A stretch of DNA of 64,000 nt from a virus. Its lineage: Duplodnaviria > Caudoviricetes. Under the pieces are notes generated by a model that worked only from the letters and a program-made list of their open reading frames with translations, was not told where the DNA came from and did no database searches. The stretch is from positions 1 through 64,000 of the IMG/VR virus record IMGVR_UViG_3300021979_000004. One strand, given 5' to 3'. The translations under genes and the position numbers were made by a program. Positions 35,952 through 38,312 of the stretch are shown piece by piece (within the stretch, counting starts at the first letter, position 1; each line of letters starts with the position of its first letter).

Positions 35952-36302
35952 CGTAGATCGTGTGTCTGCATAAAACAAAATTCCATTCAATTGCTAACGT
36001 GGTGTTCACCTTAGTTAACATTGGAAGTGTTAGTAGGCACCATCTTTTAGCTTAGGTTTCTGGGACGCTTGCATTTTATAGATAAAATAGTAGGCCATCC
36101 CCATACTAAGCTGCGAATCCGAAGTACCGTTGACCAAACGTTTTAAAGAAAAATAGTAGTCATCAAACGTCATATCGGAAACGCTAGGCTATGTCCTGAC
36201 TCGTGCGAACCATACTAGATTTGGCAATCAGAGCGATTAGGATGGAGGTTAATAAAATTTGACAAGAATATCTCTAGCTAAAAAAAGTTTTTCTCAAAGT
36301 GC

Positions 36303-36365
36303 TTGACACTGAATTCGAATGACCTTATAATGGTTACAGAAGTTGAGGAAAACGCTCTTTAAAAA
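36303..36365 (+). promoter_or_regulatory. Consensus sigma70 promoter plus boxA driving the ncRNA array
   Basis: TTGACA-17-TATAAT (36303-36331); CGCTCTTTAAAAA (36353-36365). Confidence 0.8.
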
Positions 36366-36369
36366 CTGA

Positions 36370-37594
36370 ATAGCTTTGGTACTCGCTTGACCGTCCCGAT
36401 AGTAAGAGCAAAGGTCATAAATCATTGCCACCAAAGCTTTTTGCCCATAGGCTTACTCACCTATGTTACAGGCGCGGTAACCAATCCGAAGAGTAAGAGT
36501 TACGAGAGTATATAGGCATGGTCCTTTTTCATCATGTGAAATTCCTATCAAGTAAGGGTCATGACCTATATACTCTCAACGACCGATGGCACCCTTGGAC
36601 TAGCTCATCCATGTTACAGGTGCGGTATCCAGCCCGAAGAGCTACCGAATTTTCTAACCAAGGTTTGGCGTAATATGGCCTTGGTTCTAAAAACCACAAG
36701 TGTCTGTTTTTTCCTCCTTTGTCGGACACGCTACCAGTGGGTACAGGGGATAGAGGTTCACCCTGAAGTGGGTATACAGGACAAATATTTAGTTTCTGTC
36801 TCCGGTCCTGTATACCTAAACTTATTTGCCGAAAACCTGTAGACGGTTCTTTGCAGTTGTCCGTCAATAACCGCAGGGTAAGGGGTATTGTGGTTCACCC
36901 CAAATGTTTTGCCTAATGGGTTGTAAATAATATAATTACAATACATTAAGAAGTAGAGGTGAGGTTATGTATACAGGTCATTCCTGTGTGTAGGTTGAAC
37001 TCCTGCTAACCAACACCCTCTGCGACAAGTTTATAACCATGGGAATAAGACCTCTGCAAGCAAGTCCATCTGTGAAATCTCGTAGGAGAAGCGACGGTGA
37101 GGAACCTACGGAAGTGAGTAACATACATGGTTAAAGTTTTGTGCATATGGGTTTGAATTGTTTTTAAAACTTTAAATATCTAATCTAATTTCTCCATTAG
37201 GTTTCCATATGCACAATTTATTATGTACCTGACCGATCCTCTTGGTGCCCTCCGTCTCAGCATAACCAATGGTCAGGTACAGTTTTTATGCGTCGTAGGA
37301 CTGCCGGAATTGGACTACAGTCATCAATGGTCTTCTTCTGGGGTGTCTGAACGTTTATAGTGATTAGAGATAGATGACTCAATACTCAACTCATTATAAA
37401 CCTCCCTGTTCGACTCGGGGGCGACGAGCCAACTTCAAGTCGGGTAGCTCAGATGAATAGAGCGCGTCACTGATAAGGACGAGGCCGGTAGTCACTACCC
37501 CCGAATTAAAAAATTATGGTGCTGTTGCTTGCTGATCACAAGTAGGGAATATACTGATCTAGACAGGAGTGGGTTCGAATCCCATCCAGTGCCA
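36370..37594 (+). ncRNA. Array of structured non-coding RNAs (about 1.25 kb)
   Basis: Many 9-13-bp perfect helices, a duplicated motif and several T-loop arms; no credible ORF. Confidence 0.65.
37441..37505 (+). pseudogene. Degenerate tRNA-Ile(GAT)
   Basis: D-arm AGCTCAGATGAATAGAGC and loop CT-GAT-AA intact; T-arm lost. Confidence 0.5.
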
Positions 37595-37598
37595 ACCG

Positions 37599-38312
37599 AA
37601 TTGAGTATGAATATCTATTGGTTTTGATATTTTCTTATTGTATCGATATGTTTATATGCTAGGTTTATAAAATAGTCAGAAGAAATGCCTATGTTAGAAA
37701 CGAATTCTTTTTCTGAAATTTCTTCATCAGTATCATCATAAAGGGTTGATCCTATATCATCGAACCGAATAGCATATTTATTTTTATCACTGAATACATA
37801 AATTAAAACGAATTTGTCTTTTTTAAAATATTCATTCCAATCATCAGGTGAGTATGATGAAGTGCACCATTTTGTTGATCTTCCATAGTACTTGCTAGCT
37901 GAATGATTAAGAGGCACAATTGCGAATAAATTGCCATTATTATATAAAATTATTTTATTAGATTTCTCTTTCTTTTTTTGTTGACGATTAGATTCTTTAT
38001 GTCGGTTCTTATCAACATAATCAACGAATGAATTCCATCCTTCCTTTACCCAATAGGATATATCCTTATGATCTATGAGTTGTTTTTGGGATAATTTTTT
38101 AAATGTTTCTATATAATCTTTAACTAAAGACTCGTCATTATTTTTAGAAAATATCCTATAAGCATCTTTGTAAGACTCAAATAATATTAAATCTGTTATT
38201 TTCATCATATAATCCTTGATTATTATCTAATGTATGATACTATTTATTTAAGAGAGAACCTTTCAAACCTAGATAATAACAGGGCTAGGCTCTCAAAAAA
38301 TTGAGTATGAAT
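37599..38312. repeat. 14-bp direct repeat AATTGAGTATGAAT flanking an inverted gene cassette
   Basis: Identical copies at 37599-37612 and 38299-38312. Confidence 0.8.
37615..38208 (-). CDS. PcfJ-like domain protein with capsid-targeting-like N-terminus
   Basis: ASKYYGRSTKWCTS motif; MKITDLILFE; AATAAATA at 38241-38248 (minus). Confidence 0.5.
   Translation of the reverse strand: MMKITDLILFESYKDAYRIFSKNNDESLVKDYIETFKKLSQKQLIDHKDISYWVKEGWNSFVDYVDKNRHKESNRQQKKKEKSNKIILYNNGNLFAIVPLNHSASKYYGRSTKWCTSSYSPDDWNEYFKKDKFVLIYVFSDKNKYAIRFDDIGSTLYDDTDEEISEKEFVSNIGISSDYFINLAYKHIDTIRKYQNQ

Follow-up and report, generated by a model that had tools for sequence, protein, structure and literature searches.

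A duplicated pseudoknot RNA in the tRNA region of related aquatic jumbo phages

Introduction

What is the RNA that is encoded twice in a non-coding stretch of a marine jumbo phage genome, and what could it do during infection? Phage tRNA clusters have long been known for small RNAs of unknown purpose, and the locus studied here lies in such a setting. The window analysed covers the first 64,000 nt of a virus record (IMGVR_UViG_3300021979_000004) that is 217,982 nt long and 73% complete, and the genome carries 18 tRNA genes. An initial annotation had described a duplicated RNA with a three-way junction, complementary outer stems and possible kissing loops, and had proposed a new aptamer, ribozyme or protein-binding decoy. 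We demonstrate that the motif represents a genuine RNA family, and we correct its fold, which is well supported. We found no earlier description of it in RNA databases or in the literature, where a list of 10,006 viral RNA candidates (PMC10690425) could still include it.

Results

The repetition of the motif is not a product of chance. Two places in the 218-kb record, 36463-36493 and 36611-36641, carry an identical 31-nt core that is found at no third site and that none of 100 shuffles reproduced. Among ungapped 56-nt repeats of the non-coding region the best reaches 41 identities, whereas 30 shuffles never exceeded 33. The repeated sequence first described is confirmed, and the full motif, at ~56 nt, starts 10 nt further upstream than had been reported; copy 1 and copy 2 agree at 40 of 56 positions. 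The genome's longest ORF-poor stretch (35952-37614) holds both copies and contains no ATG-started ORF of at least 100 codons, and gene calling in the relatives places no gene over the motif. The spacing between copies, 135-151 nt in most relatives and 401-402 nt in L146/L148, breaks reading frames, and with no ORF present a protein-coding reading was rejected. A minus-strand reading is disfavoured because the promoter and tRNAs lie on the plus strand, where G-U wobbles occur at three pairs, against one A-C mismatch.

Each copy is a self-contained ~56-nt pseudoknot domain, delimited by alignments of homologs and by covariation and laid out in the window as follows.

36442..36497, plus strand: pseudoknot RNA copy 1
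36443-45/36471-73: copy 1, P1a
36446-51/36460-65: copy 1, P1b
36453-58/36491-96: copy 1, pseudoknot helix, with an extra pair 36452/36497 in this copy
36459: copy 1, unpaired A
36466-70: copy 1, bulge
36475-77/36486-88: copy 1, P3, with its loop at 36478-85
36489-90: copy 1, linker
36590..36644, plus strand: pseudoknot RNA copy 2
36591-93/36619-21: copy 2, P1a
36594-99/36608-13: copy 2, P1b
36601-06/36639-44: copy 2, pseudoknot helix
36614-18: copy 2, bulge
36623-25/36634-36: copy 2, P3

P1a and P1b together form one stem, whose 3' strand is broken by an invariant bulge of 5 nt, UUACA. The 8-nt loop of this stem pairs with the 3' tail over 6-7 bp to give the pseudoknot helix; from the stem to the tail the chain runs through P3, a hairpin of 3 bp, and a linker of 2 nt. 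The extra 5' strand of the motif pairs with the bases just past the 5' arm of the reported outer stem, forming the 6-bp P1b, and, beyond the 5-nt bulge, with the GGY of the core, forming P1a. Because these upstream bases pair across it, the outer stem is a loop-tail pseudoknot.

The complementarity of the outer stems had been recognised correctly, as three of their six pairs change on both sides and pairing is 100% in the 15 sequences. The three-way junction and the kissing loops are refuted by covariation, and the pseudoknot replaces both: the first hairpin of the junction is 73% paired, with zero double changes and one pair broken in 12 of 15 sequences, and the kissing loops show no double change either and have one pair broken in 7 of 15, window copy 2 among them. 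Moreover, the nested half of the pseudoknot model is lower in energy than the fold first proposed in 15/15 sequences. Across the 15 distinct sequences, 96.5% of the 285 cells of the whole model are paired, compared with only 30-37% in slid controls, and six pairs change on both sides (31 double-change cells); the variable Y of P1a covaries perfectly with its partner, being G-C in eight sequences and A-U in seven. Of the fully paired column pairs in an unbiased scan (293 variable pairs in all), the five with the highest mutual information are all part of the model. Parsimony on trees built without the tested columns counts three switches for the P1a pair, two and three for two pairs of P1b, and one, one and two for pairs of the pseudoknot helix, and these switches are nearly always double changes. 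The 15 sequences are closely related, so that a shuffle control overstates significance; our argument rests on the slid controls and on the recurrence of switches. Covariation establishes P1a, P1b and the pseudoknot helix, with one P1b pair (columns 6/23) being U-U in 7 of 15 sequences; P3, which is invariant throughout, is consistent with the model and unproven by covariation. Folding single sequences gave no useful signal (z about -0.6), as a pseudoknot would lead one to expect. We infer from the geometry a compact fold in which P1a and P3 would turn back against P1b at the bulge, since the 2-nt linker could not otherwise reach the loop, and in which the bulge and the P3 loop would form a conserved surface.

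A pattern scan of metagenomes recovered three contigs with the motif, and neighbouring proteins led to further homologs in Tara, ENA, JGI and Logan assemblies. The resulting alignment holds 15 distinct copies without indels, and a covariance model scores the homologs at 72-85 bits against a background of at most 20. Rfam 15 covariance models gave nothing over the motif in the window at E up to 10 and nothing over it in other lineages at E up to 5. The motif stands as a new conserved structured RNA outside the Rfam families, as had been predicted: structured homologs are found by covariance model, and there is no Rfam match. All homologs come from one narrow clade of related aquatic jumbo phages, so that the invariance of loop bases says little about a binding surface. 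Scans of IMG/VR, GTDB, cultured phages and plasmids returned chance matches only and no distant homologs, and none was found in 19 other viral records, Salicola phage SCTP-2, PA5oct or four bacterial genomes. The 53 chance pattern matches from public scans all fail a three-helix test that every true copy passes. Pattern scans need exact words, so diverged members could escape them, and a structure-only descriptor was not specific, matching many AT-rich stretches as well.

The motif lies in a 1.1-kb cassette whose other features in the window are listed here.

36303..36331, plus strand: sigma70 promoter, 12/12 consensus match, 17-nt spacer; conserved in relatives
36354..36364, plus strand: rrn-type boxA antitermination site, an 11-mer identical in the E. 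coli rrnH spacer; kept in relatives
36372..36438, plus strand: module A, a separate widespread pseudoknotted phage RNA
36504..36577, plus strand: long spacer hairpin between the copies, z -6.2, with homologs; stem kept, loop varying between phages
36690..36765, plus strand: module C copy 1, two covarying stems
36832..36901, plus strand: module C copy 2
37049..37122, plus strand: module D, conserved in the clade

The two copies start 110 and 258 nt downstream of the perfect sigma70 promoter, and no terminator was found downstream of them. The motif is thus a non-coding gene in a tRNA transcription region, as are the small RNAs of other phage tRNA clusters. No protein gene follows, the next features being RNA modules or tRNA, and since a riboswitch is a 5' leader with an expression platform, the motif cannot act as one. 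The boxA identity and the relatives of the tail sheath, which is closest to Salicola phage SCTP-2 (54.5%) and to PA5oct-like Pseudomonas phages (about 38%), together suggest a gammaproteobacterial host.

The order motif, hairpin, C, C is kept across all lineages, and module C always follows the last motif copy in this clade. Such constancy would be expected if the motif were the 5' domain of one large ornate RNA spanning the cassette, possibly multimeric and akin to GOLLD and ROOL, which are multi-pseudoknot orphan RNAs found near phage tRNA islands as single folds of 600-800+ nt (PMC12286853). However, the 56-nt motif moves independently, and modules have been inserted or lost, or have tRNAs and promoters between them. 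In L146/L148 tRNA-Leu immediately follows one motif copy, and the other copy has a promoter of its own in front of it; in several relatives module A is interrupted or replaced with both motif copies retained; and two unrelated viral records, L057 and L059, have module C but not the motif. By eye we saw no conserved pairing between the motif and the downstream modules, and there is no GOLLD or ROOL covariance-model match. One large ornate RNA is therefore very improbable; the cassette is a chain of separable RNA modules, and the motif, whose neighbours change between phages, is very probably a structured autonomous RNA domain. In L004 the 5' context of the first copy is joined to the 3' context of the second, with one copy in the stretch covered, and this looks like a single-copy recombinant.

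The surroundings of the copies also bear on the idea that the motif is a processing or stability element, in which the knot would block exonucleases or mark a cut site and so define the ends of cassette RNAs, with the adjoining hairpin as cargo. A copy lies just 3' of a hairpin in window copy 2, L003, L004, L085 and L146/L148, one L146/L148 copy abuts a tRNA 5' end, and a possible 2-bp contact of the 5' end with the P3 loop (83% paired, double changes in both pairs) would close a ring, as is known from viral exonuclease-resistant RNAs. That contact is weak, however, being broken in 5 of 30 cells in a manner that partly tracks lineage; the copies do not share the same neighbours, and a simple hairpin could already serve as a 3' block. 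We consider a processing role unlikely.

Several neighbouring elements deserve description in their own right. The sequence of module A, an RNA of ~57 nt, hardly differs between unrelated phages, namely Rhodococcus phages Francesca and Dorin, Sulfitobacter phages and IMG/VR contigs (L001:2501-2556, L002:1501-1549, L006-L012). Module A often lies beside tRNAs, is far more widespread than the duplicated pseudoknot motif and has no Rfam match. By eye, it has a closing stem around three short helices that all cross one another; L005 and L063 show compensatory swaps, and the crossing order recalls the twister core, of which the cleavage-site bases are not retained. In three related phages module A is split by a homing-endonuclease-like ORF on the reverse strand:

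L071:5332-6054, reverse strand: DUF723 ORF inside module A
L084:5145-5867, reverse strand: DUF723 ORF inside module A
L152:1413-2135, reverse strand: DUF723 ORF inside module A

Module C is duplicated too and combines its two clearly covarying stems with a probable junction-loop pseudoknot; it stands behind its own promoter in L057 and inside a tRNA cluster in L059, and has no Rfam match. An 'anti-Shine-Dalgarno' loop at 36700-36729 of the window is the variable inner hairpin of this module; the word is lost in L003, L004 and L148, where the loop is still pyrimidine-rich, and the loop could pair with a purine run in the second C module. Module D is a multi-stem element present in every lineage that spans it, and exact patterns gave no relatives of it in IMG/VR.

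Discussion

Our analysis raises the question of what a pseudoknot of this kind could do. By context its closest counterparts are GOLLD/ROOL and two stable small RNAs from the tRNA region of T4, RNAC and RNAD, which still have no known function (PMC3014915, PMC9697503). Like the motif, RNAC and RNAD are small non-coding RNA genes within a phage tRNA region (PMC3014915, PMC9697503); the motif differs from them in being a duplicated pseudoknot fold without tRNA-like ends, and BLAST of the motif gave no match to T4-like phage records.

In their fold, the type III antitoxin RNAs (ToxI, cptI, tenpI) come near the motif: they are pseudoknots of ~50-55 nt with a 1-nt first loop, and some tenpI occur in two non-identical copies, as here (PMC13682666). 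Through P1b and the pseudoknot helix, the motif is itself an H-type pseudoknot with a 1-nt first loop (as defined in PMC13682666). In these antitoxins, which neutralise ToxN, CptN or TenpN nucleases, stem 1 is followed by a long, A-rich single strand, and head-to-tail repeats stand between a promoter and a terminator with the toxin gene further downstream. In the motif, by contrast, the corresponding 25-nt segment is not A-rich and contains the covarying P1a as well as P3, the copies lie 135-402 nt apart with modules between them, and there is no terminator-toxin gene arrangement. Rfam gave no ToxI match over the motif, and the 73%-complete genome yielded no ToxN match, in a search run without a positive control, and no TROVE, RT or Abi_2 gene.

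The preQ1-II and fluoride riboswitch aptamers are pseudoknots in which a hairpin is inserted before the 3' pairing strand, a topology that the motif shares. Its size and conserved unpaired bases recall them as well, and the motif is duplicated, stands behind a strong promoter and regulates no gene, all of which would suit a small-molecule sponge, an aptamer that lacks an expression platform and would sequester a cofactor or a nucleotide signal in the infected cell. The phage moreover manipulates nucleotide metabolism, as the genome carries a nicotinamide phosphoribosyltransferase gene (NAMPT; G000 C1 83519-84883, L158) typical of phage NAD-rebuilding counter-defence. Compared with these aptamers, however, the motif has the extra P1a helix and the bulge, shares no consensus and is followed by no gene or ribosome-binding site; no Rfam riboswitch matched it even at E=10, our scans found no cis-acting bacterial relatives, and we know of no natural phage RNA sponge for metabolites. 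A sponge is therefore unlikely in our view.

A compact pseudoknot with a conserved bulge, adjacent to a tRNA in one lineage, might also be a new self-cleaving ribozyme class that processes a tRNA or ncRNA precursor, for which the theta ribozymes are a precedent: they are small, HDV-like pseudoknotted RNAs beside phage tRNAs, located at tRNA 3' ends (PMC10879173). The motif, however, lacks the nested double pseudoknot of HDV and theta, has no P3/P1.1 equivalent in its first loop and no J4/2 catalytic cytosine, its linker being AA or UA, and the sole tRNA-adjacent arrangement, in L146/L148, is 5' of the tRNA rather than at its 3' end. The pistol ribozyme has the closing strand of P2 downstream of both P3 and the pseudoknot strand, a helix order that the motif does not follow, as it has no conserved downstream partner strand and its flanks vary. 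With no match to any Rfam ribozyme, pistol included, and its confinement to one clade, a self-cleaving role is decidedly unlikely.

The absence of a downstream gene, the tRNA-type operon and the swappable modules favour a trans-acting binder over a riboswitch. Our best guess, to which we give a probability of only about 40%, is that the motif is released as a stable RNA and works in trans, binding a protein as its ligand or as a decoy. Judging from its context, it would be transcribed at a high level with the tRNAs from the sigma70/boxA promoter and be cut out of the precursor in the way of the T4 tRNA-cluster RNAs; the released RNA might then be bound, as ligand or decoy, by a phage protein or by a host factor of defence or RNA binding, and two copies might raise the dose or cover two variants. 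We rank the protein ligand or decoy first because the genome contains other RNA look-alikes, namely a copy of the 23S GTPase centre (score 51 against a null maximum of 34) and a degenerate tRNA, and because pseudo-ToxI is a precedent for a phage pseudoknot RNA that acts as a decoy (PMC3475682). In our rRNA comparisons, for which the GTPase-centre copy with its score of 51 served as the positive control, no host RNA is visibly imitated by the motif: its best local score is 35 (23S 2703-2761), a weak likeness given the null maximum of 34, reached in 1 of 63 windows, short of significance for that number of windows and with a differing pairing pattern, and exact matches to rRNA, in sense or antisense, extend over no more than 8-9 nt. 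Supposed resemblances to 16S h1, h18 and the 790 loop and to the 23S 2450 region did not score. A tmRNA fragment was rejected, with no ARAGORN or Rfam match, as was wcaG-like pairing with tRNA 3' ends, since the UGG strand sits paired in P1b and is absent from window copy 1.

The motif may instead be one of a phage 'library' of riboswitch-sized folds without expression platforms, serving as a sponge for a small-molecule immune signal or as a new self-cleaving ribozyme class, which we hold to be just as unlikely as the sponge considered above. If it were true, either activity would be the first for this fold, and a sponge would be a new kind of RNA-based counter-defence. As it stands, the locus provides a precise, covariation-backed 56-nt fold that exists naturally in two variants, in a cassette of which at least two modules recur in unrelated phages; its reach is limited, the motif having been found in one uncultured clade only.

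Finally, we note further conserved elements around the cassette. Positions 37438-37507 of the window hold the degenerate tRNA, with a GAU anticodon, a shortened T-loop and 32.5 bits, and 37518-37594 a tRNA-like unit with an intact T-arm; both are conserved in relatives. Upstream of the promoter and after an HNH endonuclease gene lies a conserved ORF-free stretch (36000-36260) without Rfam match, parts of which are kept and rearranged in L004, L063 and L148. One lineage (L079:4090-4256, L080) has the promoter of the cassette, but a short array of tandem pentanucleotides comes next in place of the cassette itself; this may be an assembly artefact at a contig end.
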